Below are positions 3,076 through 56,197 of a DNA stretch of 58,583 bases, one piece after another. The first letter of the stretch is position 1, and every line of letters starts with the position of its first letter. The stretch lies in assembly GCA_015680685.1 (NCBI GenBank), contig MNCI01002245.1:33803-92385 (forward strand). Reading direction: 5' to 3'. The translations under genes and the position numbers were made by a program. The notes beneath the pieces were generated by a model that was not told the origin of the DNA, searched no databases, and saw nothing but the letters and a program-made list of their open reading frames with translations. This DNA is from Gnetum montanum (Eukaryota; Plantae; Gnetophyta).

Positions 3076-5451
3076 CAATGCTTAGCCATGCCCTTCCCAT
3101 GATGATTAGGAAGTCCCATTTATAATTCTCCACCTTGATTGCTAGGAAATTAGTAGGATAAGACCACCCACAAACAATGGTCATAATGTCTTCTACTAGT
3201 CCCAATGGAATAGTGATGGACTAGTTTTCCAATTTCAATCTAATATTACTTTTCTTAAGAGGTGGTAGGTTCCATGTAGCATACATCTCATGAGAAATCA
3301 AGTTGACACTAGAACCTAAATCAAGAAGGAAATTACATGGTTCGTTCCTAATAATCTATAAATAAATAAAAGGACTCCTAGGATGGGCTAATTTCCTAGG
3401 AACGTTGCCAGCCTGAATCTAATCAAATATGGCATAAGTGGGCATAACAATATGGATTCTGGATAGTATTTGGTTTGAAGGGAACTCAAAGGAATTAAGG
3501 ATAGAGAGAGATGGAGAAGTAGGGTTGCCAACTACATGTGTATGTGAGGGCTTAGGTGGACTGTTGGATCAGAAAAAAGGTCTTTTTCATAATATATTAT
3601 CCAAACAACTTGGTTAATGAATTGGTTGTAGATTAATAAACCTAATAGCATTTCATTGCTATGGTTGGGCTAGAAGTTCACCTTGCATAGATGGAGTAGG
3701 TGGTAGCTATGTTGAGAATGGAGGAATAGGTGCAAAAATAGGAGGAGGATAAGGATATAAGGTGGTATCCCTTCTTGAATTTGGAAAATGAGTTTGATAA
3801 TAATCAGGAGGGTAGTAGTGAGGTTGAAAAGTAGAAATGTGACTAGAAGAGTCATGTGGAGATAGGGATTGCTGAACATAATACCCACATGAATTAGGTT
3901 ATCTGTAAAGGAATTACTACATTGGCAGTGCTAGTGCCCATGATTGTGGTTATTGCCACTGTTGATATTGCTCATATGGTTCTAGTGGAATTCCACTTGG
4001 ATAATACTATTGTTGTTGATAATACTGTTACTACTGATGGAAATGCCTAAGGTTGCCTTGAGGATAAGGAAATCTTCTAGGTGTTTGCATTCTTGCTAGT
4101 TGGAAACTTAGAGCATACACCCTAGACTCCTGTAAGGGTGACACAATGGGGCAACATCCCTTAGGATGTTAGATATCACATTCATTGTCATCATTTGATT
4201 CAGTTTCTGCAACTTCCTTTATTGTAGCAATCTTGCCCTTATCCCTTTGATTGGCACATTTAGCTTCCTTTTTCCTCCTATGCTCATGATCACTATCTTG
4301 TTCTTTAGATTCTTTAGAAATTTTTAAGATATCTTAAAATCTACTATCTATAGAGTCTCATAATTAATCAACCTTGGCCAAAATTTCAAAGGTAAATTTT
4401 TGAAGTGGTAATGTTTTTCAATTCACCACCTCATCAAGTGATCATTCCTCCTCACTCTCCTTCTTGTGAATGGAAGGATTACGGTTGTACTCTTCTATAG
4501 TTTTGTGTTTCCTCAACTCTCCTTCTTCCTTTTCCACCTACTCAATCAACCATTAGATCTAATGAGCTCTTAATTCTAATAATTGTCATTGGGGATCGAC
4601 TCTAAGAGTTCTCCTTGTTTTTGATCGAAGCCCATCTATGATATGACGAAGTTGCTCCTATTGAGAATAACCATGACCAAGCCATCTATGTAATAGAGAA
4701 TAGTATCAATCCATGACGATATCCAAGGATTCATATGTCCCTTGTTTGCATCCTTGGATCTACCTAAGTTAGACACATGGGAGTATGTCTAATACTTATT
4801 ATTGAATAATTCAAGCATTGTACTCCACTTTTTGATGAATTCTAGTTCTAAGGACTGGTACCAATTTTTTGCTTCTTTAATGAGTATCCTAGGAAATAAC
4901 TTAAGCTTTTGCTAGTCAATTTCTATATTTTGTTAAGTACAAGTAGCATGGAAAGCTTGAATATTGTTCTATGGATCTAAGTTATATCCCCCTCCTAATC
5001 AAGGGATATTGTTCATGTCTAGCCTCTTGATTTGACTATCCTTTATGTACCTTGTGAGAATCTTCGCTACCTCTGCAATGTTTAGCATGCTCCAGGAAAT
5101 GAGCAAAGGCTCATCGAGGCCATGATTCTAATGCCTATGATTTCCTCTACTACCCCTTCATTCATGGTGATGGATCTCTCCTAAATGCCTACACCCTTGA
5201 TCTTAGCTTGCCTAATAGTCCCTATGATTATCTCAGTCCCATTAGTTACCTTCATCATGATTGCATCCCCTACAGTTGCATTTAGAGCCATAAGAGAAAG
5301 AAGATGATGACGAATAGAAAGAGGAAGCAAAACTAACACCATCATAGTGCTTTCCACCCCTTCTTCAGTGATCATGGCCATGATCACAATCATGCTTTTT
5401 GTCAGCATTCCTACACTAACTCTTCTCCTTGGATCCGATACCATTTTGGGG
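3076..5451 (-). pseudogene. Athila-like element A: degenerate gag-protease (3' part)
   Basis: Minus-strand translation gives KLKLFP..LIKEAKNWYQSL (Gag), LLDLGSSVNLI (aspartic protease) and PLGLVED...FL...IIMGRAWL. Confidence 0.85.
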
Positions 5452-5951
5452 GTGATGGTCGCTTAGGGCCGTCAAGGACTGGTCCATCTTAGTGTGACAC
5501 ATATGCGGATCATCAAACCGTAGGATCCCTTTACTTCGACTCATTCCTTCTGAATCCATGGCTGACTTCCTCGCATAGCATCTTGTCAGAACTCAATCTT
5601 ACACAGCGCACTCCTCTCAATCGGCACTTTCTTTCAGGGAGTTCGTTAGAAAAAGAAGCTACCTTCCAACCAAGCTATCAAAAGGGTCGAACAAAAAAAT
5701 GGAATCATGACATTCAAAAACGAAGCATACAACACACCTAATCAAGAGACAGTGCCAAGAAAGCCATAGTGCTTCCAGATGATGATTATTGACGGAATCT
5801 TAGATAAGAAGAAATCAAGATAAGACAAACATAGAGCAATACTCCAAAGAAAAAGATAATGAAATGCCAATTAATCCACAATAGAAGCGAATTCATTAAG
5901 AGCAATTGTTGAACATACAAGCAAAGACAAGCTTACAGACTAATACACACA
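5452..5951 (-). repeat. Left ~500-bp inverted repeat (inverted copy of the viral leader)
   Basis: Reverse complement of 12579-13084. About 80% identical in the hand-aligned portion, almost all transitions. Confidence 0.95.
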
Positions 5952-6829
5952 ACTGTTTCCCAATACAAATTACCTAATGATTTAGGTCTACCATACTCCT
6001 TATATTCAAACAATGTCTTAGCTAACATAAACAAATGAAAGAATAGAAACACTTTCTAAGTTTTATTGGACAATGGGAAAGAGTCTGGTATCTACCCCTA
6101 ATATTTCAATTAGGCCAAATTTGGGGTCTAAAATGAAGAAAAGTCCATCATGTCCTGTGATAAGCTTAGAACTAGATGGTCCATTAAGGTCATCCTCATC
6201 TTGCCCAGTTTTTTTTGAAATAGAAGAACTACCAAATAGTGATAATGATGTTTAGGAAATCCCAATTCCTGATTTAAATCTTCCCTCTCTCATCCAGTCT
6301 CATGATAAGTATGGAAAGCAATATGTGTATCCGCCTACGCCAATAGGTGATCTGTATTAAGATGAAGTTGAAAATCCTTTTGAACAAGAAGATCAGGAAT
6401 TATTAAGACAAGTAGCTTTAGGTAACAAAGTAACTTATGATGAAAATTCTGTAATCATTTATGATGAAGAACGTGAACAAAGGATTCAAGAAGAAGAAAA
6501 TAGGAGATTTAGGATTCAAATTTTTAATATTTTGGTTCAAGCTGCTTTAGATGAAGTTGATGATGACATCAGGCTTAATGATGATGAAGATGATAAGGAT
6601 GATGGAGAAGCAAGAATTGGAATTATAGATGGTTATCCACATATTTTGATGTTAAGGTTAAGAAGTTTGACATTTCCTAATGCAACTGATGCTAAAGGAA
6701 AAGGAGTTGAGGAGATCTCTGAAGAGCAGCAGGCGATTTTACCATTTTCTAAGGCCTTGCTAAAGAAGAAATCTTTTATGTCAGGAGGACATAAAGATCT
6801 AAGATTTCTAGAGATTCCAAAGGATGCAA

Positions 6830-7330
6830 TATACAATTTTGCAAATACATTCTCTGCAAGAATGGCAACGTCAATCTAACAGTCAGAAGCATTGCTTGAT
6901 ATTAAAGGAAAAGGTATCAGACCTATTTTACTACCGTTATTCACTGATGAAGAAATAGATAAATGGAAAGCTCAGAATTATGCATATGTTCATCTGGGTC
7001 AAATTGATATCATGGTTAGTCCTAAGTTCAACTACAATATTGGGGCAGAATATGTAGTTACGTTATTAGATAATTGAGTAATTAGTGATGGTATATGCTA
7101 AGATCTAGAAACCACATGGGAAACAACAAAGATCTGTCAGTTCAGAGGAACGCTTGATTCTGATGCTCTCTACACAGTCCAGCCAAATTACCAATTAGCA
7201 TTAAATGATGATTATATAACAAGTGCTTTGTTGTTATGTATAGAGATACATGGCATAGATCTGCTTCCAGGTGTAGTTTATGCAGCTATTGTGGTTCATG
7301 GAACGTATCAGCTATCAAATAAAATTCTAA
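6830..7330 (+). pseudogene. 30K-superfamily viral movement protein domain
   Basis: YAYVHLGQIDIMVSPKF...VVTLLDN(R)...GTLDSDALYTVQPNYQLALND matches the caulimovirid MP core. Confidence 0.9.
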
Positions 7331-8329
7331 TGAACCACAAGTTGAAGTGGGGAGTTTAGTTTCTCAAAGGAAGTTAACATTTGATCACATGTAGAAGATC
7401 GATTCATGCACCTGACTACATTCAAAGTTTTCCAAAGATCCAGAACCTGCTACAAGATTAAGAATTCAAGACCATGGAAAAGCCAAAAAGAAGATGGAGT
7501 TAATACCTAATTCAACAATTTGGAAGGTCTGAAATAGTTACTTTGGAAGCACTCCCAGTAGTACTCCCTTCTCAAAAATTTGCAAAATCATCAACAACAT
7601 CAACCTCACCCAACTATGATACTCGTGCTGCAATCTTGATGATGCAACCCTCCTACAGAAAAGTAGGAAACTAAAGGTTACTAAGTGGCGGTCAATGGCC
7701 ACCTCTTGGTGCATATCATACAACAGCATCACAAGTTGATCCACCAGTTACAAGAGTAGATTGTAGCTACTTGCTTGAGCATTCAGTTGCCAGTCCTACA
7801 GACCAATAGGACACCATTCGTCAGCTCAACTACTTGTATCATTGGATGTCATATGCTTCACAGCATATCACACGCATGCATGATCATCTCAGCCAAATTG
7901 AACATGGTGTTGATCGGATTGACGATCATGTCAGTGTTATGTCCAAAGAAATGAGCGATCATCTCACTGCCTATGAAGCAATCATTGAGCACAAGCTTGA
8001 CGAACAGCAGACAAAGAAGTAACAGTAACCGAGTGTGACAAAGCAAAAAATTCAAGCAGTGTATACCCTTGAAAATCAATTGGTTCTTCCAAAAGCTCGA
8101 GAATCTTCTGTACCAGTTTTACAAGCTCAACCGTCCGCACCATCAAGTAAGCCAGTCCTTAAAGATCCGAGAGATCATCTACTCCTCAAAAAGATTAAAT
8201 GTCTTCAAATTGAAAAGGAAGTGAAAAAGCCCAAGTCAGAAGGATAGCAATCAGGACCATCTAGTCCTAAAAATTCAAAGCCAAAATATGAAGATGATTT
8301 TCAACGACACATCATGATGGCAAGGAGAG

Positions 8330-9245
8330 TTCATCTGAATCCTCCATGAAGCAGAAATCCAGTCAATCCACCTCCTGTGTTCTCTGCATTTCAACAATGG
8401 CCAACAGCATTAATTCCTGTAATTGACATTATTTTCTTGCCGCCAAAAGAGTTGTTGCACGCATTGCATCTTTGGATAGACAAACTTAGAACAACCATGC
8501 ATGTTCTAAATCTAGATGAAAGAATAGTCATTATCGATGCATTTACCCAAGCTAGTGGAAAAATTCGACATTGGTGGGAAAGTTCCAGCCAAGAATAGCA
8601 AGAACAGATCATCAGCATAGGATTACAAGGTGTGTTCATTGCCTTAGTTACAGAATTTATAGTACATCTTTTTGCAAATATTAGATTGAAAGATAAATTG
8701 CTCTTCAGTCAGAGAAAGTTGCATGATTTGAAGTATTTTGAGCAATTTAGTGCTAAATATGTTAATGAGGTCTATAGATTAGCTTTTCATAAAGATCAGA
8801 TGATTCCTTATCTATATCTAGGAAGCTTGCTTGCTAAACTTGGAAAAATGGTGTTATATAAAGCTCTTGAAAAGAATATAGATCTGTCTTTAACCTACTT
8901 TGCAGACATGGTGCATATGGTTAGACAAGAACTTTAGTTTGCATGCTACAATGTCTAGTTACACACTTTACTTCCTTCAGCGGAAGTTTATGCTAATCTA
9001 GATGGGGTCGATGTGTTTAGTAGAGCCCCATGAGCTCCTTTCAAAAATCCAAAGAAGATAATATTTCAGCGAAAGTAGTTTAGAAGACCATCTCAACCAA
9101 GGTTCACTCAAAGAAAATGGAGATGATCATTCAAGCCAAATTTGAAGCATTTCTTTACTAAGAAATGAAAAGGTCCCTTCAATAGAAAAAAGGTAACCTG
9201 TTATTCATGCAAAAATCAAGGTCACTATGCAAATGAATGTCCACA
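8330..9245 (+). pseudogene. Capsid protein domain with CX2CX4HX4C zinc knuckle
   Basis: GKIRHWWES..., a basic tail, and CYSCKNQGHYANEC at 9199-9240. Confidence 0.85.
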
Positions 9246-9849
9246 GAAAAGGCCAGATCATAAGATGAAAGCATTCTTTGAAAGCTATATTGAAGACTGG
9301 GAACTCGTAGATGATCCAGAAGCAAAAGCCGTAGAAGAAAAGATTTATGCAATTTAAGTCTTGTCAGATTCTAAGCAAGGTTCAAATGAAGAGACACCTT
9401 AAGAAAGTGAATTATCACTAGAAGATGGTGAAGAACTCCAACGAAGTTTCATGATGCAGCCATCCTCTAGCGAATTCAAAGAAGAATGGTTCACTGATAT
9501 TTTGCTTGAAGATCTTGAAGAAGTCAAGACATGGCTAAATGAAGAAGAAGTGTGGTCAACCTCAGATGAATATCAAGAGATTCAATTCAAATCTAAAGAT
9601 CAATTTGGAGATCGTGATTCAAGTATTTCTTCAACTCTGGGATGTAGAGAAACATTGTTAAAAGCTACCTATGAAGATGATTCAGATGAAGAACCAACCC
9701 CGAAGATCATCAACCAAAAGTTGCCAAAGTTCTTAGCCACACCATATCAGAAGCGTTTTCTAGTTGCAGCAAAAATTGGCAAATGGACAAAAGAGAAGAC
9801 TCGTCAAGTAGACCCTCAAGTTCAGCACCAAATTAAGCATTTACTTTCT

Positions 9850-10190
9850 CTACATAGCATTTTATTAGTTCCAGTTAAAGTAGTAGTAGATGGAAAAGAA
9901 AAGTGGAAGAAATATCAAGCTTTCATTGATACTGGAGCAACTTTGTATTTTTGCCATAAAGATGTTTTAGAAAATTTGGTTACGCATAAACTAGTCACAT
10001 TGGACACAATGAATGGTGTCAGAAAACTTACCCATTTTGCATTTGATGTGCCAATATCTCTTAATGATGAATATGTGAGTTCAACAAATTTTGTGCAAAT
10101 CTCTGATAGTGGTTTTGATATAGGATTGGGTGCTTTCTTCATGGACAATCTTGGTCCATACACAATTAGGCATGAAATGATAGTATGTTC
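9850..10190 (+). pseudogene. Aspartic protease domain
   Basis: YQAFIDTGAT...DIGLGAFF. Confidence 0.9.
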
Positions 10191-10449
10191 ATCCTTGCAA
10201 AAGGATGATCATCCGAAGATTATTTTAAGTAAATTCCGCCTCAATTGCAGAGAAACAAGCATCCGCAGATTCGCACAAATTTCAATAGAGATAATCCTTC
10301 TTTAAAGCAAGTATTGACATAATATGAGCTAGAGGATATTGCCAAGCAAAAATATGCTCTAATTCAAGAATTGAAAATGGCTCAAATTGATTTGAATGAT
10401 GAAGAGAAAAGATGTTATAGTAGCTGTTGTGAAGAACTGAAGAAATGCT

Positions 10450-11810
10450 GTTGTGAGCATCCATTGGATTTTTGGGATAAAGATAGTCCTGAAGCACACA
10501 TTCCAACTGTGCATAACATCCTAGTCCAATCTAAGGTAATTGTACTGAATCAACAAGATACTGAAGAAATGGCAAAACAAGTGGCAGAATTTCTAGAAAA
10601 AGGGTTAATTCAAAGATCTCAATCCAATTATGCCTGTTCCAGTTTTATTGTTCGAAATCATGATGAGATAGCCAGAGGAAAATCCAGAATGGTAATCAAT
10701 TACATACCATTAAATGCAGTTACCATCGACGTCAAATGACCATTACCCAACAAATAGTTGCTAATTCAAACAGTTGCAGGAAAGAAAGTGTTCAGTAAAT
10801 TTGATTGCAAAAGTGGATATCATTAGATCTGAATCGTAGAGGCTGATATTCATAAAATGGCATTCAACACTCCTCAAGGTTTATTTGAATGGACAGTAAT
10901 GCCATTTGGGTTAAAAAATGCTCCATCCTAGTTTTAGAGAAGAATGGATGCCATTTTCAAGAATTCACACAATTTTGTAGCCAACTATTTCGATGATCTT
11001 GTGATATTTTCAGACAATCCCACAGAGCATGTTTCTCATCTGCATCAGTTTGCACAGCTTTGCATTCAACATGGAATTGGGTTTTCCTCTGATAGTACGA
11101 AGTTTCAAATCGGTAAAAAAGCTATTGAATTTTTAGGCATCACCATTCAGGATGGAAAAATTCATATGCAGCCACATGTACTTCAGAAGATTGATAAGTT
11201 TCTAGACCAGCTGGCAAATAAAGAACAGTGCCTTCAATTTTTAGGATGTGTTAATTATGTTTCCAAGCACATTGAAAAGTTTTTAAACAAAACCAAAGAG
11301 ATTCGTTGGTGTAAAAACCAGCAACCGTTTCTTTGGACAATAGCAGCAATAGCCCAAGTAAAGCAGCTCAAAGCAGAATGTCAAAATCTTCCTCCTCTCA
11401 AACTAATTTTGCATGGTCCGTTCATCCTGAACACAAATGCAAGTTATGATGCATGGGCAACGGTGTTGCTTCAAGTAAGCAATTTGAAAGAATCAGAACA
11501 GGTATGTGCTTATGCCTCCGGAACATTCCAGAAAAGTGAACTGAATTACTAGCCTGTGGAAAAGGAAATTCTTGTAGCAGTCCGTGGTCTAGAAAAGTTT
11601 CATATCCATCTCATTGCTGAGCCCTTCATCCTCCACACAGATTCTTCAAATTTAGCAACTTTGCTAAAACGGTGAATCTCCTCATCTCCAAAACTTCAAC
11701 GTTTTGCGTGGTGGAAATTTTTATTGGCACAGTACAAGTTCTCCATTGAAAGAATTCCAGGCATCACCAATAGTCTTCCGAATGCATTAACTTGTGAGTT
11801 AAAACCATAG
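10450..11810 (+). pseudogene. Reverse transcriptase and RNase H domains, caulimovirid type
   Basis: [39 protein letters not shown] at ~10985, CAYASGTF..SELNY..EKE. Confidence 0.95.
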
Positions 11811-11816
11811 ATCAAA

Positions 11817-12455
11817 ATGTTTCAACCTAAATCGAGTAGCAGTTCTCTCAATCCTATCCAAGATTTAGAAGATTGGAAAATTTGGCTAGTGAAAACATTA
11901 GAAGATATTGTTTGCTGGGTTCGACAAGTCTCAAGACTGTTTCCTTAGGATTCTTTACTAAGTGTTTCCAAGCAGTATCCAATGCTTGATTTCTTCATCA
12001 ACATGGCAGGAAGAATCGACTGTGTCATCAATAATATTTGATGGAGTCGGCTAGAAGGTAAACTATTATACCATATGATGTTGAAAAATATGCTTGATCA
12101 TTTGATCCTTATCCAAAGGCCATTATTTGTAAACGAAAATGTAAGAAGATATCTCCATGAGATATTAGGATCAACCTCATAGGAAGAAAAGTTGTGTACA
12201 TCATTCCAACGAATCAAATTTTTCCAAGAGCTTACCTAGTATGCTAATGAACACATAGTGCCCAAGCAACTTCCACTACCAGAACCAAATGATGTCTCAT
12301 CCATGCCAGCAAGCATCTTGATAGAGCTGTCAAAACTTATCAAGAACTGCAACGATTGTAACTGTGCACGTGGAAAGATTTTTCCTATTCATCGTGCCAT
12401 TCTCAAAGATATCTAGGCATGCCTTATACACCTCCCTTTCTTGTTTTCCAAGTAA
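11817..12455 (+). pseudogene. Downstream viral ORF (~212 codons, unknown function, several stops)
   Basis: ATG at 11817 to TAA at 12453-12455 with only deamination-type stops. Contains CNDCNC...H. In frame with pol across a single TAG. Confidence 0.7.
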
Positions 12456-12469
12456 AGTTTTAGCTTCAC

Positions 12470-12530
12470 TTGCACGTCAAGCAAATGTGGTGTGTTTTGG
12501 AAGCCTCAAGCTTCCCTGTCCTATAAATAA
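12470..12530 (+). promoter_or_regulatory. Putative pregenomic RNA promoter (ACGTCA/TGACGT element and TATA box CTATAAATAA at 12521)
   Basis: Lies right after the last ORF, as for the caulimovirus 35S-type promoter. Confidence 0.7.
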
Positions 12531-12578
12531 AGGTCCTCGGTGCACCAGAAGAGGGTAAGAGAGAAAGGTGTGAGAGTG

Positions 12579-13084
12579 TGTGTGTATTAGTCTGTAAGGT
12601 TGTCTCTTCTTGTATGTTCAGCAGTTTCTCTTAATGAATTCCCTTCTATTGTGGATCAATTGGAATTTCATTATATTTTGCTTTGGAGTATTGCTCTATG
12701 TTTGTCTTATCTTAATTGCTGCTTATCTAAGATTCTGTCATTAATCATCCTCTGGAAGCACTGTGGCTTTCTTGGCACTGTCTCTTGATTATGTGTGCCA
12801 TATGCTAATGCTCCATTTTCAAATGTCATGATTTTGTTATTTTTTTCAACCCTTTTAACAGCCTGGTTGGAAGGTAGCTCCTTTGTCTAATGAACTCCCT
12901 GAAAGAAAGCGCCGATTGAGAGGAGTGTGCTCTATAAGGTTGAATTTTGACAAGACGTTGTGTGAGGCAGTTAGCCATGGATTCAGAAGAAACAAGTTGA
13001 AGCAAAGGGATCCTGTGGTTCGATGATTTACATACGTTTCATGCTAAGCTAGACCAGTCCTTGATGGCCCTGAGCAATCGTCAC
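12579..13084 (+). repeat. Viral leader region, which is also the right inverted repeat
   Basis: Starts about 50 nt after the TATA box. Reverse complement of 5452-5951. Confidence 0.95.
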
Positions 13085-13656
13085 TGTAGATTTTTGTTTT
13101 GACCTCTTTCACTAAAGTTAAGGAGAGGAGTTTTGCTAAATGGAAAAATCCCAGAGAAGGGTTCTCCACCATCTTTTTGGTAATAGGTATGGGGAATCAT
13201 TGAACCATGTTCCCTTTGCATATTCATAGTGCTACTCTAGCTATCAATCACTTAGACATAGTGCATCAGTGAGATAGCAATCCGTAGCATCACTATCCTA
13301 CACAATGTACTCAACATAAAGTCCTTAGAGGTAATCACATACGAGTTTGTTGGAGCATCATAGGAATGGATCAATCAGGAGGAAAAATGATGTTGCCCTC
13401 CATGTCATGCCACCACATTAGTTCATATTGGTGTAAGATGAAGATAAAATTAGGTACATACTCATCAAGATGATCATATGCCACTCTATATTATTAGGGA
13501 ACCCACTGATTTACTCTGTCAAACTTGGGTGAAGAATCACTCCTATGAGAAGAAGACATTTTGTTATTTTAATGGATGATATTACTTTAAGGTTCATTCC
13601 AATGATCTTGAATAATTTTCACTAAATCCTAGATAGCACACGTAATAAACAAAAGG
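13085..13656 (-). pseudogene. Athila-like element A: 5' part of gag and 5' UTR
   Basis: Minus-strand ATG at 13559 (MSSSHRSDSSP). Colinear with the gag at 19838-20350 and continues into 5451 across the virus. Confidence 0.8.
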
Positions 13657-13674
13657 TCCCTAGCAATGGCACTA
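13657..13674 (-). promoter_or_regulatory. Degenerate tRNA-Asp PBS of Athila A
   Basis: TCCCTAGCAATGGCACTA is a deaminated TCCCCGGCAACGGCGCCA. Confidence 0.8.
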
Positions 13675-13675
13675 A

Positions 13676-14557
13676 TGATGAGTGGCGAGGTACCCCTACA
13701 TCCAACCATACAAATCATAAGCATTTATGCATGATCTAGTCAAATTTCACAAACCTTAAGTTCCTAAGTACACTGGTTCTAGGACGTGGAATCTAATCAT
13801 GACAATTGTTGTCTTCTCAACTATACTTGTGAAGCATAATTGTATGGTTAAGTATAACTGAGGTACATGATTTTTATTATTTTATATTTTACTTGTCTAT
13901 GATTAAAAAAAAAGTTTAAACTTAATTTATGAACCAATTTCACTAATCTAATTGCTAATTAATAGCTTACTATCCTAGCATAAGTATCTAGTCCTACTTT
14001 CTATGCACATCTTGAACACATATAATGCTATTGGGTTACCAAACGTTAAGCATTGTTGGAATCACCAATAGTCATACGCATGTTCAAAGTATTCATACTT
14101 ATGTACTTAATTAATTTCTATTTAATTTAACTAACTTACTTTAGCTTAATTACTTGGGAGCATTAAAAATTGCATAAACATTAAATGCATGAATAAAATA
14201 TTTAAGCTAGCCAAGGTGCTGCAAGGTTTGATCAGAAAGCTTATCTTTACTGCCACACACATTGTCATGATTAGGTACAATAATGTTCAAATAAAGATCC
14301 ATATACTCAATGAATCTTACTATAGGCACTTTGGAAAATATTCTAACTCTAGAGAAAAGAAACTGCAAGAGCTCTACTATGCTATGAAAGAAATTATATG
14401 AAAACAATGTGTCCAAGTGCTATATTTATAGGTTGGCACATAGCCTATGATATCGAATATCTGACATTACATCTAGAGACCCAATATCTTGTATCTAATA
14501 TCAAGGATCTAATATTGTGTATCCAATATCACAGCCAGGAAAAACACTATTTATGAT
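13676..14557 (-). mobile_element. 5' LTR of Athila A
   Basis: Starts TGATGAGT on + like 24568 and 56198. Minus-strand TATA at 14421-14432. Outer end is approximate. Confidence 0.8.
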
Positions 14558-17500
14558 CAACTATAACATTTTCCATACCCTTCTTGTTCATCATTGTTAT
14601 GTCAAATTCTTGTAAGATAATGAGCCATCTAATCACATAGGGGATGATTGCATGTTTTTTTATAAGGAAACAAATGGCTTTGTGGTTAGTGTGGATGTAG
14701 ATTGGGTACTCGGCCACATAATGTCTAAACTTTTCCATTACATACACCATTGCCATTAGCTTATTTTCTATTGTGATGTAGTAAAGTTATGTCATGATGA
14801 TGCTTTTGCTAGTACAATGAATGTAGTATGGCCTCTTCTGGTCATCTAACTATGTTAGAACCATGCCCAATAAGTAATTCAAAGCATCTATCATGATGTG
14901 AAATGGCTTGGACCAATTCAAAGCTTGTAGGATTTGTGTTTCAATCAGCATCTGTTTCAAGGTTTCAATAGCCTTTTCACATGACTAAAATCACTAAAAG
15001 AATGCATCCTTCTTAGTCAATTCAACTAGTGGTTTTGCAATCCTTGAGAAGTTATCTATGAACCTTTTATAATACCTAATGTGGTCCAAAAATAATCAAA
15101 ATTAATTAACAATTTGTTGTCTTTGGGTGATATTTTTTATGACTATGATTTTTTCATAATCCACTTCTATTCCTTAATAGAAAATTTTGTGCCCTAAGAC
15201 AATCCCATCTTGGACCATAAGATGGATTTTTTGCCAATTGAGCTTTAGATTAGTTTCTACACATCTCTTTCATACCTACTCGAGGTGGTCTAGTGCTTGT
15301 TTAAAATCTAGACTATGCATGGAAAATTCAATCATAAATACTTTAACACCATTTCTTATTTGTTTCTAGAATATGTGAAGTACAAGTCTATGAAAGGTGG
15401 CTGGCACATTGCAAAGGCTAAAAGGAATTTTCTTATAAGCAAGAATTCCCCATAAACTAGTGAATGTCATATTCTCTTGGTCCTTAGGCATGATGTAGAT
15501 TTGATTATATCTATTGTATTTGTCTAGAAAACTATAGTACTCATGTCTTGCAATAGTATCTAGGACTTTATAAATGAATTACAAGGAAAAATGATCCTTG
15601 AATGTGGTAGAATTCAACAATCAGAAGTCGTTGCACACTCACCACTTGCCTCCCTTCTTTAGAATGATTACCAAATGACTACCCCACTCACTATCTGCAA
15701 TGAAATATATGAATTTGGCCTTTAATAATTTTTCCAAATCCTACTTGATTACTTTCTTAAGTTTTGGGTTAAGCCTCCTCTACAATTAGCATCATGGTCT
15801 TACTATTAGATAAATATATATTTGATGTTGATAATTCTTGGATCAATTCCTATGATCTCATCATATGACCACGCAAATGTTATTGGCCACTTATTGATTA
15901 CTTCCAACAAATTCTTCTTCTACTCTTTATCTAGGTTGGTGTTAATTATTATTGGCTTCTAATTATTTAGGAATGCATATTCAAGTGCTGCCATTAAGGC
16001 CTTTAGTTCTAGTGGTTCTGGTTCAATCTTATTTGGGATCTCTAATTGTCCAAATTCTATTTCCTCTTCTTAACCTTAATATGAGTAAGGAAATCTTCTT
16101 CTTAGTTGTTCTATCTTATAAGCTTCTTTATGTACGCATTTATTATTTGTTTCATTGGTTCCATGTATATATTTGATTTGATTTTCCTATCTATAATCAG
16201 CCACTAGATGCCTTCTTGTTGGGTGGCTACTACATACAAGAACTTTGCACATACATTTCTTTGATACATTTGTTGCATGTTGTATTCTCTTCCTATCTGA
16301 TTGTTCATATCGTTTGCACATAACTACACCCATTATCATTGTATGGAATACATGAAACATTTCATATCTAAATGATTCTTACTTCATCTTCCTTTCAAAT
16401 TTCCAAGGACAAATCTTGAATACTAAGCTTAGCATCAACAATGCTAAGCCAAGCCCTTCCCATTATGATTGGGAACTCTCCCTTATTTTTACCTACATGA
16501 ATAGCTAGAAAATTAGTAGGGTAGTACTAGCCACAAATGGTGGTGATCACATCATCCACTTATCCTAGTGGAATTATGATTGATTGGTCTATAAGCTCTA
16601 GCCAAATATTACTTTTCTTGAATGGTAGTAGATTCCAAGCCTAATACATATGTTGTAATATCAGGTTCACTCTTGACCACAAATTGAGTAGAGCCTTACA
16701 AGGTTTTTGCCTTGCTACTTGAAGGTACACCAAGGAACTTTCTAGATCTATTCAATTCTTAGGAAGTGCTCCTACCTTAATCCAATGAGTGATTATTTAT
16801 GTTAGCATGAAAGTTGTTACATTTGTATTAGATGTTGATTGAAGCTTGCTATTTCTAGGAGAATTGGATGTGGATGGAGTGGAAGTAGATGTGTTCCCCA
16901 TTCATTGAACCTTCTCTAGACTCATTCAGAAGAATAGTCATTTCATGCATTGTGGTTCCTATATAACTATCTCCTCCTGCATGGTCATAGTCCTAGTTGT
17001 GTTTTTCTATTGTGGTTGTGATAATAGTTGTCCCTACATTATAGGTGGTGGCATAGGTGGCAAAGTATTAGAAGTTTGATTTAGTGAAATAGCTACTTGT
17101 GGATGCATGTACAGAGAAGGTGTTGGTCTATGGTATTTTTGTGGATAATATTGTGAATTTTTAACTATTACATTCCCAAGAGAAATCGAACACTGGACAT
17201 AGTATCCATAAGGGTTAGGTTGCTGATATGAATACTACTATTGTAGTGGTGGCATTGACCACAATTGTGGTTGGTAACACTACTGATGATATTGCTCCTA
17301 TGGCTACAGATAGGTTCCACTAGGGTAGTAAGCTAGTTGGAAGGTTTGAAGATAATTACCTTGAGGATAAGGTAACTGTTTGGGCATTTTCCTCTTGAAA
17401 AATCTTGGGTTCAATGCATATGCCCCTATTTCTTGCAAATGTATCATAACAGGACAACACTCCTTAGGGTAGTCATACTAGCACACAGAACATCCTTCCT

Positions 17501-18590: not shown

Positions 18591-18910
18591 ACCTTTTCTT
18601 ATTGATGAGAGCAGTTACTCTAGTAGTTATTCTNTGCTACCTTTTCTTATTGATGAGAGCAGTTACTCTAGTAGTTATTCTAATTATTAGATCAGTTACT
18701 CTAGTGGTTACTCTAGTAGTTATTCTAATTATTAGAGCGGTTACTCTAGCAGTTACTCTAACTATTAGAGTAATTACTCTAGTAGTTACTCTAGCAGTTA
18801 CTCTAATTATTAAAGTGGTTACTCTAGTAGTTATTCTAATTATTAGAGTGTTTACTCTAGTGGGTACTTTAGTAATTATTCTAATTATTAGAGAGCTTAC
18901 TCTAAGTATT
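18588..18910. repeat. Low-complexity tandem array (AGTTACTCTAGT / TTATTCTAATTATTAG) containing an assembly N at 18634
   Basis: Directly visible. About 46 bp is duplicated on both sides of the N. Confidence 0.9.
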
Positions 18911-24277: not shown

Positions 24278-24567
24278 ATGGATTCTTTTGCAAACCCCAT
24301 TAAGCAATTAACTAACTATTTAACGTAGCCTCCCAACCAAAATCAACATCCACCTAGAGACCACAGTCAAAATCAACACCCATTTAGGGATCATAACCAA
24401 AATTGGCATCCACCTAGGGATTATTACAAGGATCAATTTCAATCCTAAGGTCAACACCAAGACCAATTTCCACATGGGGATTATTATCAAGGCTATTCCC
24501 CACCTATTCGTCATCAATGTGCTAATTTTCCATTATAAGGATATAGACTAGAACTAGAATGGGAAGA
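24278..24567 (+). pseudogene. Probable N-terminus of a chromovirus-like gag with 30-bp (10-aa) repeats, interrupted by Athila B
   Basis: NQNQHPPRDH-type repeats at 24335-24500. Gag-like coding resumes at 57059. Confidence 0.55.
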
Positions 24568-25416
24568 TGATGAGTAGTGGATATACCCTAAGCCCAACCA
24601 TAAGAATCACAAACATGTATTAGCAATTGAGTCAAATTTCGTGGACTTCTTAAGTTTGTTCATAGTCCTAAACTATGAGTCAAGGAGTTTCATGATCGCT
24701 ATCTTCCTAACTCACACTTGTGGTGCTATGTGTATGGCTAAATATGAGTTAATATATATGCTATTTATTTATATTTATATTTTTATATTTTTTATCTTAA
24801 GTTCTATATGAGAAACTAAATATTTAATGATTAATTATTTTAACTACATCACGTTCTAAAGGCTAACTACCCTAACATAAGTAGCCATTTTCTCTTGCTA
24901 CACATATCTTGGATTTGTATAAATGCTACTGGATTACCACGTGGTCATTATTGGGTGCACTAACTAGCCATTTTTTGGATTACCAAGTGTAATACCTTAT
25001 GCTCGAAGTGGTTGTACTTATGTGTACATGGTTAATTACATTAAGTATCTATGACTTGGAATATTAAATGGATGCAAAATAAAGTGTTTTCAAGGAATAT
25101 TAAGCTAATCTAAGTGCTACAATGAATGCCATAAATCTTAAATTTATTGACATTCATGCCAATGCATTCAAGTACATGGAACTCAAATAAAGTTCCATAC
25201 AATCTCTTTCACTCATACTATGGACACTCAAAGGAAAATATTCTAACTCTAGAAAAGATAAACTTTAAAGGCTTCACCATAAATGTGGTTGGTACATGCA
25301 TTTATATAGGCTACACCTATATTAGCATTGACGTATCTATATTGACCCATGTCACCATGCATCAATGGGGATGTATTGATGCATGTCCATCGAAACAACC
25401 TTTTTATGATGCTTCA
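24568..25416 (-). mobile_element. 3' LTR of Athila B
   Basis: TGATGAGTAG...ATGATGCTTCA, colinear with 56198-57058. Confidence 0.9.
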
Positions 25417-28562: not shown

Positions 28563-30046
28563 TGTCATGATTAGAATATTTGGTTGCTGAAAAATCAAAG
28601 ATCCTAGGTGGAATAGCTTTAGCCTTGGATCCCAAGGACCCTAAAAATAGGATTTGAGATGCCCTAGATGATCTTGTTGATCACCTAAGGACTTACAGAG
28701 TGTAAACAAGGATAATAAAAATAAAAATAATGTAGATTCAATTCTAGGAAAATGCATAGAATAATACAAAAATAAAGCTATAAAATTATAGGTAAATGCA
28801 CAAAAAATATAACTATAAACTTTATTGCAATAAAATTTTGAAAGCAAAGAGAAATTCAAGATCTTTACAAATGGTGCTAAGGGATGCAAAGAATTCACTT
28901 AAATGGGTTGTTTGGAGTTTTCTGAAGTTGATAGCCTTGGATGCCACAATTAGCTCCATAATCCAAATGCTTCATAACTTTCAAAATTGTAAACCCTTAC
29001 TATACTCCTCACCATATCTGCAGCATTTGTAGTGTAGAGGGGTAAGATGTCTGGAGACTTTGGGCCATAGGAAAGAGCCACACTAGGAATCTTAATGCCT
29101 AGTTTGCTCACCATTTCCAAAAAATCTCACACAATCATAGGGGTTGAACAATGGCCAAAATGGTTGTAGGTTTCATGCTAGAAAATTTTCAAAATCCTTG
29201 TTTCTACGCTGAGTTTTCAAATCTCTTGAATGCCAAAAAAGTGGAACCCTCTCATGGTGTACAAGCCTAGTTTATATAGGTTTGATGGCCATAATTTGGG
29301 CTAGAAATGTTTGTCCTAAGTGCTTAAAAATTGCTATCACATGCAGGTTTTTTAGGTGTATAAATCTAGCATGGTTTCAATGTATGGTAAGTTCTGATAC
29401 CCCTAGGGTACCAAAACCATTTTAGTTCCTAAAAATAGTAAATGAGAATTTTACCCACACTAGCTTCTTTCCCCCACACTAGCCTTCAAAGAGAAATGCT
29501 AGGCCTATAGGAATCATGTTGGGTTGCATGGGATACATTGGGTTGCATGAGCAATTTTGGGGTTGTTGGGGGTCACATTAGAGTTGCTAGAGTAATGTTG
29601 GGATTGCAGAAGCCATGTTGGATATGCTAGACCAATGCTAGGGTTGCTAGACCAACATTGAACATGTTGAACTTTAGGAGCAATTCTAGGATTGTATGAG
29701 CCACATTGAGGCTTCCATAGCTAAACCACCCAATGCTAAGCATAGGTGACTCCAACGTTGAAAAGGTTACATCCCCTACAAAACCAATTAAAATGCCAAT
29801 TTTGGCAATCCAAAGGGCATTTTTGACTTCCCTAAGCCCAAATATGGACATTATATGACTTTTTTCACCTAGGGGTTAAGCCTATGACCACTTTTGAGGC
29901 ATTTTTCTACCCAAAAAGTTAATGTGAAATTGCATCTCATAGATGGCAATCTTTACATTTTGTAATGCAATTTTATCTTTGGGTTTCATGGGGTAAGAGT
30001 TACGATGTTGAAAGGTTACAACATGCATTTTCTTGGTGGTATTTCA
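28563..30046 (-). mobile_element. 3' LTR of the Tat/Ogre-like element
   Basis: Colinear with 49059-50589. Followed on + by TTGGCCCCTC, the reverse complement of PPT GAGGGGCCAA. Confidence 0.92.
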
Positions 30047-31149
30047 TTGGCCCCTCTTTGTTGGTTTCTTCAAGATAGGCCTAAGAGACACCAACAACGA
30101 ATAGAAAACACCATTGCAAATCCATCATCTATGCTCCCTATCCACACTTGATTCAGTACTATTGAACCATGCTAAAGAGCACTTATGATGATGGGATAAG
30201 GTTATGATGGGGTAATAGAGGATAAAGAAGTATTTGACTACAAGGAAATAGTCATGAGAGTTAACAGTGAGTTCCAAATATTGACATCATGGCTACAATA
30301 TGACACTAACATGTTGAATGATCAATGAGGTTTTTGCACTTCATGTTTTAATGTGTTGATACTCAACAATGCGTTTGAGAAACCAACATATCACTCCATG
30401 GTTTCTTTAGCCATCAAGCTCCTTCCTTTGCATGTTTGGAGCCATTGATTTGTATTTTGATCTTCATTTACCTTTTGGCTTCTTGCCCATGTGCTTCCCC
30501 ATTTTTTTGTGGAATGAAATCTTCATTGGGTTTCTTTACCAAGGTAAGGTTTGATCTAGTTTTTCCATTGAATGAAATGTGTTACATTCGATAGACTTGA
30601 TGATGGAGCATGATGAAGGGATGTCATATAATCATAATGCAAGAGTGTTAAACATTTTTCATTATTATTACTTAGGATGAGAAAGGTTATAATTAGGCTA
30701 TGGGGTTGGGCTTAAGGAGAGGTAATAGGACTGAAGTGAAATAAGAACTCTTAACACGATAGGACAAGCTCACCAAATATTGTCCATCGAGGTTACATGG
30801 TGACTTGCTATCATAATGAGTTGCACTTTCATGATGACTCCAAGCTTCATCCTACAAGTACAACTCCAAGAGAATAGGAAAGATAGAGAAAGAATTCATG
30901 TTGTTACAATACAATGCATAAGGCCATTTAAAATGATCAACAAAAAAGGCTACCATATGTCACATATGTTACAAAGTTTAACAGTTCATCTGTTGTGCAA
31001 AAAAGAGGTTGTGTAGGCTTGCTTGTCATTAGTTGCAGGTGTTATTAGTATAAACTATTTGTTTTCATGATAAACATGTAGTAGGATTTTAGGTAGGAAT
31101 GATTAAATGAATTGGCCAACTCATTCCCATTCATGTTCACTATCCTAAA

Positions 31150-32200
31150 AGCTCTATTGCCATAGGCCTTGGTGACCAAGAAAGATGCTTCCTAGTTAGC
31201 TGAGAATTTGTCTACATGCTTGAAAATATCTTTGAGGATCAAGTATGCTTTCTTGATCCTACACTTATTCGGGTCATGGTGATGTCATTTCTACCTCTCC
31301 TTGTACTACTCGATGTTAGCAAGCATTCACACCTATTGCTCCTCCACCAAGTCTAGATCCATGATGTACAACTCCTTATTCTAATCATTGTTGATGAAGT
31401 CTAATAGGGATACTCAATGTGATGGAACCTACAATTCAAGAAGAAAAATAACTTTAGAACCATAAACCAAGCTATATGGGGTTACACTAGTTGCAATTCA
31501 AAATGTGGTTTGGTAGGCCCAAAGTGCATGCACAAGTCACTTGTGCCACTTGCATTTGCTATTATGTAACATCGTCTTGAGTAAGTTTATGATGGCCTTA
31601 TTACTTTCTTCAGCTTCTCCATTGTCTTGGAGGTAGTATGGTGACAAAAAGGAATGCTTAATGCCTAGGTTATGACAAATTTTTTTTGTTTCTTGGCTAC
31701 AAAATTGCAGTCCATTATCTGTGACTATGGTCATAGGTATGTCAAAATGTGCTACTATGTTATCTAGTATGTATCTATTGACTTGTTGAGATGTTTTCTT
31801 CCTTAGGAAAATATCTTTAACCTACTTCATGAAGTATTTGGTTGCAATGATGATAAAGCTATGCCTTGTAGAAGACTTAGGCATTATAGGTCTGATGATA
31901 TCCAACCCCCACCATTGAAATGACCAAGTTATATGAGTGGTTTGTAACTAAGTTGGTGGTACGTGTATAAGGTTGCTATGCTATTGGCAAGTGTCATAAG
32001 TTTTGACCTTTTTTAGGTAGTCACTTTTAATATAGGGCCAATAATAGCCTAATTTTTTGATCTTTGCAACCAAGGCTCTAGGTCCTATATGTCCCCCACA
32101 TACACTCTCATGAACTTGCTCTTGGACTATTTGGCCTTCAACTTTACCCAAGCACACTTACAATACGCCATCATAGGACCATTGGCATAATGTGTTATTG
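31150..32200 (-). pseudogene. Integrase
   Basis: HESVCGGH, YYWP, WGLDII, IVTDNGLQF, NGEAEESNK. Confidence 0.9.
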
Positions 32201-32429
32201 CCTACTATGACATACTATTTTGATCATTTTTGTATAGCATCCTTTTGAGTGATAGTCAAGCCTTGTGAAGGTTCACCATGCATAAGGTAAAACTTGATAT
32301 CATCATACCACTCCTTGCAAGAGCAATATGAACTATGGCTATGGAGTTATCTTCTGTGTTTTGTGTGATGGAAATAGCATGATTCATAGTTAAGGAGGGT
32401 GACTTTCTAAACACATCTAGCATCACACT

Positions 32430-33300
32430 AAGGGCTAACATTACAATGGCATTGACTATGGTGTTCTCATTCTAGGGTACATGTTGGATATCGATGTTTG
32501 TAAATTGTTGCATCAATTTCTTTCCTAGGTCATAATAAGGTTGGAAGTGTTTGGCTTTTCATACATAAATCTCAATTACTTGGTTAACCATAAGTTATAA
32601 ATCACCTTTAATCATTAAGCATTTGATTCCTTGGTCATGAGCTACCATCATTCCCCTAATCAAGCCCTCATACTCTACTACATTATTGGTACATGGGAAC
32701 TTGAATCAATAAGTGAAGGATTGGATTTCATTAGATAGAGTGTTATAATGGTAGTAGCATTGGCCCCATGGATAGTTGAAGCTTCATTGAAGTTCATAAT
32801 GGCCTCATAGCCCTTAAGTTATTGGCTAAAGATGTTAACATACTCATCAGGGAATTCAAGGTCAATGATTGCATGGTCATCAATAGGGGAAGCAATAAGC
32901 TTTGTGATTATAGCTTCACCTTGTGTTGAGGCCTAGTAGATGTAATGAAGGTCAAACTTAGCTATTATGGCTTTCCAACAGGCTATATGATTACTTGCAT
33001 AGATATTTGTCATGATGACTCTAAGCACGTTAACTTTGCAAATCACATTAACCTAGCTCTTAAAGAGGTAGTGTCTCCACGTCTTCAATGAGAAGACTAG
33101 GGCTAGATAATACTTCTCTACTTTGATGTATCAGGTATCATAGGTTATCAATGCATGGCTGAGGTAGTATACAAGCAACCCTGCTCCATCATCTCACTTC
33201 TAATAGGGTAGAGAGGTGATGGATGCATTAGAGTTAGTAATATAGATATAAAAGGTCTTATTCTTTTACGATGGATAAGTTATCAGTAGTTGTACAAACT
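32430..33300 (-). pseudogene. RNase H-like domain followed by archaeal-type RNase H (aRH)
   Basis: YYLSHAL...EKYYLALVF, then FPCTNNVVEYEGLI.G...IKGD..L.VNQV. Confidence 0.85.
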
Positions 33301-34588
33301 CTTGCTTAAGGTATTCAAAGGCTTCTTGGCATTGAGTGATACACTCATAGTGAAGTCCTTTCTTAAGTAAGTGTTGCATGGGTTGTAACTTATCCATAAG
33401 CCTAGTGATAAACTTATGGATAAATTGTAATCTACCTTGTAGCCCCTAAAGCTCCTTAAGGTTTTTTGGTGCTACCAAGTTGGATATGGTCTTAACCTTA
33501 TCAAGATTGATACATATTCCTACTTCAAATACTACAAAGCAAGGCATCTTACTAGTTTTGACACCAAAGACACACTTTTTGGAATTAAGCCTTAGCTCAT
33601 AATTGAGGAATCGTTTAAGCACAAGGTCAAGATCAGACCCATGGTTGTATGCCACTTTGGACTTAATGGCTATATCGTCTATGTAATCATTAAGAAAACT
33701 TGACATATAGTCACTAAAGATATACAACATGGCTCTTTAGTGGCTTACTCCTACATTATTTAGGACAAAGGGCATTATAGTGTAACAAAAGGTACCCCAA
33801 GGGGTCATGAAGGTTGTACTAAGTTGATGTTCTAGGTTAATCCTAATTTGGTTATATCCTGAGAACCCATCCATAAAGGATAATAAGGCATGTATAGCCA
33901 TAGTATCGATAATTTGATCAATATTAAGTAAAGGGAAATCATCTTTAATAGTTGCCTTATTTAGATCTTGGAAATTGATGCAAATGTGTATGTTCCTATT
34001 TTTCTTAGGAACTACCATGATGTTGAACACCCGTTCTATGTAATCAATAACTCTAATGAAATCATATTGGTATAGTTTTTTGATTTCATTACAAATTAAT
34101 AGGGCCAAATCAAGTCTAATCTTACGAACCTTTTACTTGATTGGTCTAATGTTAGGATCGAGTATGATGTTATGTTGAACTAAGTTTGGGTCAAGACCTG
34201 ACATATCTTTCTATGACTAGGTAAAGACCTTAATGTTGTCTTGGAGGACCTAGGTGATGCTTGCTTGTTGAGGTTTTAGTCAGAAACTTAGTTTTAGTAT
34301 TTTCTTCTTACCACTATGTGTCATGATAGGAACCTCGGCTAGAAAGTCTTTGTTAATGTCACCAGCCTTAAGGTCAAGGGTTTTGACTAAGTTTTTAGAC
34401 CAATATATAGGTTTCTCTATTGAGGATATATGGTCAACAAGACTTTAAGGTTGAAGATCTAGGTAATTAGGATCAATAAACCATTTAATATCATAGTGGG
34501 GCCCACTTAGGCTCAAAGGAAAAATAATTTGCTTCCAGGTATCCATATTTTAGTCTTTCATGTCAACCATAAGCACATTAAGTTGCAC
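33300..34588 (-). pseudogene. Reverse transcriptase with N-terminal linker
   Basis: DMSGLDP..VQH, VVPKK, KDDFPL, LSFMDGFSGYNQI, YIDD. The frame is continuous from 34588 to ORF 34108. Confidence 0.92.
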
Positions 34589-49058: not shown

Positions 49059-50589
49059 TGTAGCAACTACAAAATTTGGTTATTGAAAAACTAAAGATCC
49101 CAATCAACATATCTTTAATTTCATATCCTAAGGGCCTTCAAAAATAGAATTTGAGGTGCCCTAGATGGTCTTACCAATCACCCAAGGACTTATAGAATGT
49201 AAACAAGGCTAATAAAAATACAAATGATGTAAATATGATTTTAGAAAAATGAATAGAATAATACAAAATTATAAAAATTTGCACAGAAAATAGAACTATA
49301 AACTTTATTATAATAAAATATTGGGAAAAAAGAAGAGATTGGGATGTTAACAAATTATTTTTGGGGATGCAAAGAATTCATTTCAATGGGGATTTGAAGT
49401 CTATTCAAGTTGGTAATCTTGGACATCATAGTCAGCTCTATGATACAAATGCTCCACAACTCTCAAAATTGTAAAACCTTAATGTACTTCTTACCAGATC
49501 TACAATGTTGGTGGTGTAAGGGGGTAAGATGCATGGGGGGTTTTAGGGCACAATGAAGAGCCATGATTGGAGTCTTAATGCCCAATTTGCTCAGCATTGC
49601 CACAAAATCTCACACAAGATCAAGGGTTGAATAATGGTCAAAATGGTTGTTAGTTCCATGCTAGAAAATTTCCAAGAGTGTTTTGTCTACATTGAGTTTT
49701 CAAAGCTCTTGAATGCCAAAAAATTGGAATCCTCTCATGGTGTACAAGCTTGCTTTATATAGGTTTCATGGCCATAATTAGGATTTCAAATTTCTATCCT
49801 AATTGCTATCAGATTTCTATCACATGCAAGTGTTGTAGGTGTCTAAATCCAACATGGTTTCCATGTATGGTAAGTTCTAATACCCCCAAGATTCCAAAAC
49901 CATTTTAGTTACCAAAAATAGTAAATGGAAATTTTACCCACATTGGCTCCTCCACCCACATTTGCCTTCTAGGAGCAATGCTAGGCCTATAGGAACCATG
50001 TTGGATTGCATGGGCAATGTTGGGTTGCATGAGCAACATTAGGTTTGTTGAGGTTATGTTGGACCTATAGGAGCCATGCTGGAGTTGCTATAGCAATGCT
50101 GGGATTTCAAGAGTCATTTTGGAGCTGCTAGAGCAATGCTAGGATTTTTGGACTAATGCTAAACATGTTAAAATCTAGGAGAAATGCTAGGATTGTACAA
50201 GTGACACTGAGGCTATAGGAGCCACATTGAGGCTTCCATAGCCAAACATCCAAATGCTAAGCATAGGTAACTCTAGTGTAGAAAAGGTTACACCCACCAC
50301 AAAATCCATGAAAATGCTAATTTTGATAGTCCAAAAGGTATTTTGACCCCCACCTCCCTTCCTCCCACCCTAAGCCCAAATATGGACACACTATGACTTT
50401 TTTCACCTAGGGATTAAGGGTATGACTCCTTCTGAGGCATTGTTTCTACCCCAAAAGTCAAGGTATGCAAAATTGCATCTAGTGCATGGCAATCTTCACA
50501 TATTATGATGAAATTATAGCCTCAAGTTTCATGGGGTAAGAGTTACAATGTGAGAAGGTTACAACATGCATTTTCTTGGTGGTGTTTCA
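49059..50589 (-). mobile_element. 5' LTR of the Tat/Ogre-like element
   Basis: Colinear with 28563-30046. Confidence 0.92.
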
Positions 50590-50779
50590 TTAATCAAAGT
50601 AAAATATATAAAGTAAAGTGCCAAATATTCAAGAAAATTGAAAAACATATAAAGAATGGTGTAAAATAAAGAGTTGAAAAATAGAGTATCCATCACAAAA
50701 TATTAACGTGAATAGCCTTCTCTCCTACAATTGAGTTGGAAGTAGGAGATTTGAAAGATAGAATCTACTTGTCCATCGA

Positions 50780-56196: not shown

Positions 56197-56197
56197 A

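Follow-up and report, generated by a model that had tools for sequence, protein, structure and literature searches.

Viral Genes between Two Inverted Arms

The window analyzed here is a 58,583-nucleotide stretch of the genome of Gnetum montanum (contig MNCI01002245.1), and all coordinates refer to positions within it. Between 5452 and 13084, the window contains an endogenous caulimovirid, the genes of which lie on the plus strand and are bounded by two inverted copies of a sequence of approximately 500 bases. These two arms are likely copies of the viral leader, and the explanation that we tentatively favor for them is a single event of reverse transcription whose product was captured into the chromosome.

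The genes occupy two long frames, the first of which extends from approximately 6030 to 10305 (28 stops in 1451 codons) and the second from 10326 onward (15 stops in 725 codons); the frame shifts once, between the aspartic protease and the reverse transcriptase (RT). Pfam domains occur in the order movement protein, zinc knuckle, peptidase A3 (a weak match), RT, and RNase H, and these domains and frames bear out the caulimovirid content that a first-pass annotation of this DNA had assigned to the region between the arms. The decayed 30K movement protein region (6736..7497; Pfam MP, E = 1.5e-9) shows 42% identity to WMV1, which together with WMV2 represents the Welwitschia viruses used for comparison. 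It is followed by a decayed coiled-coil/capsid region with a zinc knuckle (7678..9276; zf-CCHC, E = 9.6e-5; 23 to 27% to WMV1 and WMV2), an aspartic protease (9868..10167; Peptidase_A3, E = 9e-4, which is below the Pfam cutoff; 33 to 35% to WMV1 and WMV2), and a decayed RT and RNase H (10458..11801; RVT_1, E = 6.6e-26, and RT_RNaseH, E = 2.3e-20). The stretch after RNase H (11811..12416) is coding as well, with 5 stops in 202 codons versus 15 and 11 in the other frames; it has a cysteine-rich end and no family match. No integrase, transposase, tyrosine recombinase, or other domain was found in the element by Pfam in six frames, and the window holds no second match to a caulimovirid movement protein.

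Upstream of the movement protein, the region 5952..6735 (plus strand) consists of a stretch of uncertain coding status followed by an acidic coding region that shares the frame of the polyprotein and has no homologues. The first 26 codons of the long frame contain 3 stops, and coding is clear from 6076 (2 stops in 220 codons versus 20 and 40 in the other frames), with an in-frame ATG at 6073. The first-pass annotation had proposed that the inner junction cuts into open reading frame 1 (ORF1), with the frame open to 5953. The early stops mean that the frame is not clean up to 5953, so that truncation of ORF1 is not supported, and ORF1 may start at 6073 and be complete. The acidic stretch (6031-6735, approximately 220 to 260 codons) is missing in WMV1 and WMV2, and residue 9 of WMV1 is the first to align, at 6736. 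Among 3316 candidates, no homologue of the region before the movement protein was found, and the Atlas scores were 0.83 or lower.

Classification and Nearest Relatives

In the RT-RNase H tree, the element is grouped with 28 caulimovirid-side rows, apart from 4 Ty3-like rows (support, 100/100), and falls into a clade of 5 rows with WMV1 and WMV2 (support, 100/100); the tree lacked the named references for gymnendovirus, Pinus nigra virus, and operational taxonomic units (OTUs) 1 and 30. The RT-RNase H identity to WMV1 and WMV2 is 41 to 47% (46% to WMV1), a value that decay lowers somewhat, versus the 62 to 65% RT identity that is used as the bound for one OTU (PMC13308828). By every feature examined, i.e., domain order, absence of an integrase, and RT placement, the element is classified as an endogenous caulimovirid, and its sequence places it in a lineage near WMV1 and WMV2 (the Welwitschia virus group, subclade B.1) yet distinct from them. 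Viruses of subclade B.1 are reported from gymnosperms, basal angiosperms, and magnoliids (PMC13308828). Like WMV1 and WMV2, the element has one long frame with a movement protein, a capsid region with a zinc knuckle, a protease, an RT, and an RNase H. On the other hand, it has approximately 220 to 260 extra codons ahead of the start point of WMV1 and a shorter stretch after RNase H, and it is integrated, decayed, and linear, with an inverted second leader. The WMV preprint describes WMV1 and WMV2 as circles of 7,872 and 7,648 bases, respectively, with one ORF, and gives a range of 7.1 to 9.8 kb for circular double-stranded caulimovirid genomes, into which the unique part of the Gnetum element (7,133 bases) fits. 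Scans of viral contigs gave no real relative (one weak locus with 66% GC in one scan and none in the other), and six metagenome-contig loci from a scan with a 20-base motif were rejected as chance matches to the motif alone.

Three other classes of mobile element were considered. The inverted termini of a DNA transposon with terminal inverted repeats (TIRs) are present, but there is no transposase and no target-site duplication, and the left end likely lies beyond the repeat. DIRS-type elements have inverted terminal repeats, an RT, and no target duplication. The Gnetum element shares inverted terminal repeats with both the DIRS and the TIR elements, and an RT and the absence of a target duplication with the former; unlike them, it has no tyrosine recombinase, methyltransferase, or transposase, its RT is caulimoviral, and no further inverted match that could serve as an internal complementary region was found in it. 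As for a long terminal repeat (LTR) retrotransposon, neither direct LTRs nor an integrase was found for the element.

The Inverted Repeat

The left arm (5452..5951, minus strand) and the right arm (12579..13084, plus strand) form an inverted match of 506 columns with 84.6% identity (blastn, E = 2.5e-159), and the coordinates of the repeat given by the first-pass annotation are therefore confirmed. In a global alignment, 427 of 500 columns are identical and a single indel of 6 bases is present, and the similarity has abrupt edges at both ends. The repeat finder lists the two arms among six inverted pairs of the window; neither it nor a sequence check detected any further inverted match within the element (5452-13084). 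The right arm is likely the pregenomic leader in its native place and stops 8 bases short of the primer-site position seen at the left copy, and the left arm is the inverted second copy.

The stretch is present in 8 of 21 listed runs, from three studies. Bridging of the junctions was judged among 32 listed contig pieces from four runs, with 291,021 more pieces beyond those listed. A 477-base piece covering 5378-5854 with 3 differences bridges the left outer end (the run that holds it may be the source of the assembly), and a 985-base piece from a different study, covering 11736-12720 with 14 differences, bridges the right inner end. A further piece (12691-13062, 6 differences) corresponds to the right arm only. 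None of the 32 pieces listed bridges the left inner or the right outer junction, and this is the one point in favor of an inverted repeat made by the assembly. Such an artefact is hardly credible, since the 73 columns (of 500) that distinguish the arms show a biological spectrum, and each arm has contigs of its own that match it at 98 to 99%, from runs of different studies. The repeat is a real feature and not a mirror made by the assembly.

Contigs with 97 to 99% identity to the locus (6117-12720) occur in runs labeled as three organisms, and the insertion therefore likely took place before their split. Contig depth is 3 to 4.5 times higher over 5736-6069 than over 12416-12749 in all four runs; depth is too coarse to serve as a copy count for arms versus body and states no copy number. 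Related copies skip 489 bases inside 7868-8358 in two of the four runs and 199 bases inside 10949-11149 in all four, the latter with short sides.

Transitions account for 54 of the 73 differences between the arms (Kimura two-parameter distance, 0.166). Differences occur at 17 of 30 CG, 10 of 29 CHG, and 27 of 157 CHH sites, and A/T-ward changes are evenly distributed between the two arms (25 versus 29). Judging from this pattern, the divergence is symmetric decay of the methylation type; decay after insertion accounts for all of it, and the arms were near-identical when they were inserted. The genes carry 30 stops in 1670 codons versus 16 to 22 predicted from the per-arm rate, which is a lower bound. 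The gene stops thus agree with the decay rate of the arms. Both arms therefore stem from a single viral genotype, close to the time of insertion, and arms as old as the genes fit the prediction of a single event.

Likely Promoter, Leader, and Primer Site

A likely pregenomic promoter is located at 12470..12560 (plus strand) and comprises a TGACG word on the minus strand (12475-12479) and a TATA box at 12522, which is one of only two TATAAA words in the element. TGACG and TATA together form the promoter core of caulimoviruses (PMC5902531). The right arm starts 57 bases after the start of this TATA box. If the usual distance from TATA box to RNA start applies, as we assume, the arm would begin approximately 25 bases into the transcript.

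A word resembling the tRNA-Met primer-binding site occupies 5430..5443 (minus strand), 8 bases outside the left arm, and matches the primer site printed in PMC13308828 at 12 of its first 14 bases (13 of 16). At two or fewer mismatches it is unique in the window on both strands, with 0.26 expected, and the chance that such a word would fall within 30 bases of one of the two outer ends (60 places) is approximately 1.3e-4. Only the 14-base comparison is informative; a 12-base word with up to three mismatches gives 28 matches versus 42.6 expected. The first-pass statement that no clean tRNA-Met primer site lies inside the element stands, as the best 16-mer matches within 5452-13084 carry 5 mismatches; the word outside the left arm had been overlooked. 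Near 6086, a primer-like start of 7 bases was dismissed as fortuitous. The same annotation had predicted a primer site just past the outer end, and a word resembling one is seen there at the Gnetum locus itself, at the left arm.

The leader is followed by the primer site in the majority of caulimovirid genera, and an RNA of leader length that ends at this site is known from cauliflower mosaic virus and rice tungro bacilliform virus (PMC5902531). Because of the position of the TATA box, the primer word, and this known leader RNA, the repeat likely corresponds to the viral leader, beginning shortly behind the TATA box and reaching to the primer site, i.e., the span of strong-stop DNA. The earlier suggestion that the repeat approximates strong-stop DNA has gained support from the position of the arm start behind the TATA box and from the primer word past the outer end. 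The word at 5430..5443 is likely viral, and the left end of the insert is thus likely further out, within 5404-5429.

Host Target and Junctions

The insert interrupts a decayed gag region of a host element of the Ty3/gypsy type, for which Pfam gives gag (E = 0.12 to 0.13) and protease (E = 0.034) matches that are all below the cutoff. The first-pass annotation had labeled this host DNA as Athila, a lineage name that these matches do not confirm. The left part of the target (4753..5403, minus strand; gag, E = 0.13) matches a paralog at 21090-20421 in 441 of 644 positions, and the right part (13085..13677, minus strand), where contig depth is very high, matches 20333-19700 in 385 of 556. The two parts are colinear, and both flanks (4753-5420 and 13101-13677) match the one paralog (21090-19700) in succession. 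Movement of a retrotransposon-virus chimera by a host integrase (PMC10377300) is not favored, as the viral genes are antisense to the host gag.

The first-pass annotation took the outer nucleotide shared by both arms as the junction with host DNA. On the right side, this is plausible; 7 of 10 bases match the host paralog at 13085-13094, and the match is clear from 13106. On the left side, the zone 5404-5451 resembles the sole host paralog in the window no better than shuffles do (1901 and 1342 of 2000 were as good), and the primer-site-like word lies beyond the arm. The ends are likely not symmetric, with the left host junction likely elsewhere than at 5452, and exact co-terminality of the arms at the host junctions, which had been regarded as the key fact, is not upheld. 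The loss of host sequence would amount to approximately 35 to 40 bases if the insert begins at 5452 and to approximately 60 if it begins beyond the primer word, both being rough values from a paralog that is 65 to 70% alike. As the first-pass annotation had stated, there is no target-site duplication: the longest words common to both flanks have 5 bases, are T-rich, and occur at chance level, so that the one such word considered as a duplication was rejected, although a short decayed duplication could escape this comparison. The CA/GT microsatellite previously placed at the inner junction is reduced to three to five units, and none of the 8 rows from Tandem Repeats Finder lies at this position.

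Possible Origins of the Inverted Arms

The route by which caulimovirid DNA enters plant chromosomes is still termed speculative in PMC10377300. For the Gnetum element, we tentatively prefer a single template switch that joined a minus strand of nearly unit length to strong-stop DNA, the product being captured by break repair. The bottom strand would start where the tRNA primer was removed, at the right end with 8 bases trimmed, and proceed through the leader, the promoter, and the genes. At 5952, it would turn into leader-sense sequence, approximately 25 bases behind the predicted RNA start, and the left end would result once copying had reached the far end of the strong-stop template and entered the primer site. 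The template may have been the 5' end of the strand itself (copy-back) or a sibling strong-stop DNA, and the resulting sequence would be identical either way. Host end joining would then insert the linear product into the retroelement with the loss of some tens of host bases, and decay under methylation would follow.

Both limits of the arms fall on replication landmarks, the inner one 57 bases after the start of the TATA box and the outer one 8 bases before the primer word, and a random fragment bounded on one side by the primer site would seldom have its other end this close to the RNA start. The primer word is confined to one end, which would form the 3' terminus of the copied strand. The absence of an integrase, a transposase, and a tyrosine recombinase, together with a colinear target that lacks approximately 35 to 60 bases, is also in keeping with this origin. 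Break repair is the standard view of how such DNA is integrated (PMC10377300), and the junctions of endogenous pararetroviruses are reported to be concentrated around replication gaps and within the intergenic region (PMC526188).

A host-repair join would give the same sequence and fits these data almost as well as a template switch of the RT. A single break-repair event could have ligated a linear virus opened at the Met-tRNA gap to an inverted piece running from leader to primer site, or could have inverted the leader segment at the 5' end of a linear DNA with terminal redundancy. The near absence of microhomology and the small target loss suit end joining, arms of the same age fit equally, and the clustering of junctions at gaps is in keeping with such an event, as are the standard view of filler capture by end joining with multicopy rearrangement (PMC10377300) and the frequency of inverted repeats in such loci (PMC9868043 and PMC10377300). 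In this case, however, only chance would place the end of the second piece close to the RNA start, unless that piece was strong-stop DNA itself, whereupon only the joining enzyme would differ, and we consider this origin somewhat unlikely.

PMC9868043 suggests that inverted repeats are gained at integration or chiefly afterwards, and a template switch of the host could have copied the right end of the element onto the left soon after insertion. The left copy, however, seems to hold a primer word that is absent at the right end, so the right end would not have been the template; moreover, the arms are as old as the genes and the host target is colinear. A duplication after integration is thus very unlikely. 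Arms of one age that are nearly co-terminal would also result if the circular virus had held a 1-kb palindrome that was opened at its apex. Against this, the primer word would be antisense to the genes, WMV1 and WMV2 have room for just approximately 1.1 to 1.3 kb of noncoding DNA overall, and dicing would be the expected fate of a pregenomic RNA with a perfect 500-bp hairpin, which makes the palindrome an exceedingly improbable source.

The arms could further belong to a recurrent type of element, i.e., a virus family that spread or integrated as linear DNA bounded by inverted leaders, whether as a panhandle or with inverted repeats at its bounds. Related copies that are approximately 81 to 86% alike span all 30 bins, including the arms, in all four runs, and the bin at the left inner junction is deeper than that at the promoter and right inner junction (59, 70, 77, and 182 versus 13, 24, 26, and 59, respectively). 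Homologous positions of the two arms, however, are equal in depth (28, 37, 36, and 91 at 5597; 25, 39, 36, and 109 at 12934), the element has no transposase, integrase, recombinase, or target duplication, its ends are asymmetric in the primer word, and its nearest relatives, WMV1 and WMV2, are reported as ordinary circles in the WMV preprint. We regard such a family as decidedly unlikely. The broader proposal that caulimovirids of clade B.1 regularly make copy-back linear DNA bounded by inverted leaders, as a recurrent route into chromosomes that would leave several loci of the Gnetum genome sharing the inverted leader-ORF1 junction, is doubtful to nearly the same degree.

Several observations weigh against the template switch that we prefer. 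The evidence comes from one locus only, and the greater depth at the left inner junction might indicate that this junction is present in other copies as well. Microhomology at the inner junction is at most 3 bases and offset, which leaves no clear annealing site for the switch. The primer word is degenerate and lies in a zone that a single paralog of 65 to 70% assigns to neither virus nor host. The position of the RNA start is predicted from the usual TATA distance, and the arm is predicted to begin approximately 25 bases behind the start and not at it. In folding, the arms have no advantage over shuffled sequences (97 and 100 of 100 were as stable) and thus show no leader stem-loop, for which decay may be the explanation, and the one Rfam match was judged to be chance. 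In tomato pararetroviral loci, inverted repeats are described as coming from any part of the genome without a pattern (PMC9868043), which favors generic repair.

Comparison with Known Systems

Inverted duplications in endogenous caulimovirids are already known. Tomato TSAs (PMC9868043) and banana eBSV (PMC10377300), as described there, likewise consist of integrated caulimovirid DNA with an inverted duplication, no integrase, and no fixed ends, whereas their repeats come from any region; the Gnetum repeat likely runs exactly from leader to primer site and bounds a genome of near-unit length. Rice ERTBV and tobacco pararetrovirus-like insertions are similar in that their junctions also map to the intergenic region and to replication gaps (PMC526188); at the Gnetum locus, in contrast, there is no flanking (TA)n, and both ends lie at the same landmark in opposite orientations. 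The proposed event would also resemble the formation of copy-back defective genomes of negative-strand RNA viruses, in which the nascent strand switches to its own 5' end and acquires complementary termini. Unlike those genomes, the Gnetum DNA would have been made by RT, keeps nearly the whole genome, and gives no sign of replication as such. Hairpin DNAs of cauliflower mosaic virus were reportedly described in the 1980s, and these are said to be local fold-backs and not 500-base panhandles. In the literature searched, where older and subscription work is thinly covered, we found neither copy-back or hairpin DNA of pararetroviruses nor endogenous caulimovirids bounded by leaders as the subject of any paper, and no report of a terminal inverted copy matching strong-stop DNA.

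The rearrangement is real and old and probably unique, and it is probably not a new kind of jumping element. With both ends at the tRNA primer site and a duplicated part that matches strong-stop DNA, the locus would point to a defined intermediate of reverse transcription as the substrate of integration. If terminal inversions of the leader alone were frequent among endogenous caulimovirids, they would identify a route of integration as well as an origin of leader hairpins for small interfering RNA; as a single fossil, the locus is a well-preserved anecdote that adds a new lineage near the Welwitschia viruses.

Other Features of the Window

Remnants of pol of the Ty3/gypsy type are located on the minus strand at 14556-15731, 31432-34249, and 51120-53331. 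Two LTR-like direct pairs with 76 to 77% identity are present (28572-30048 with 49068-50591 and 24567-25416 with 56197-57058). ARAGORN calls a tRNA-Thr at 14896-14983, inside a pol remnant on the opposite strand, and this call is probably spurious. A short-period tandem array and a spaced repeat with a period of approximately 190 bases occur at 18603-18904 and 35224-37316.

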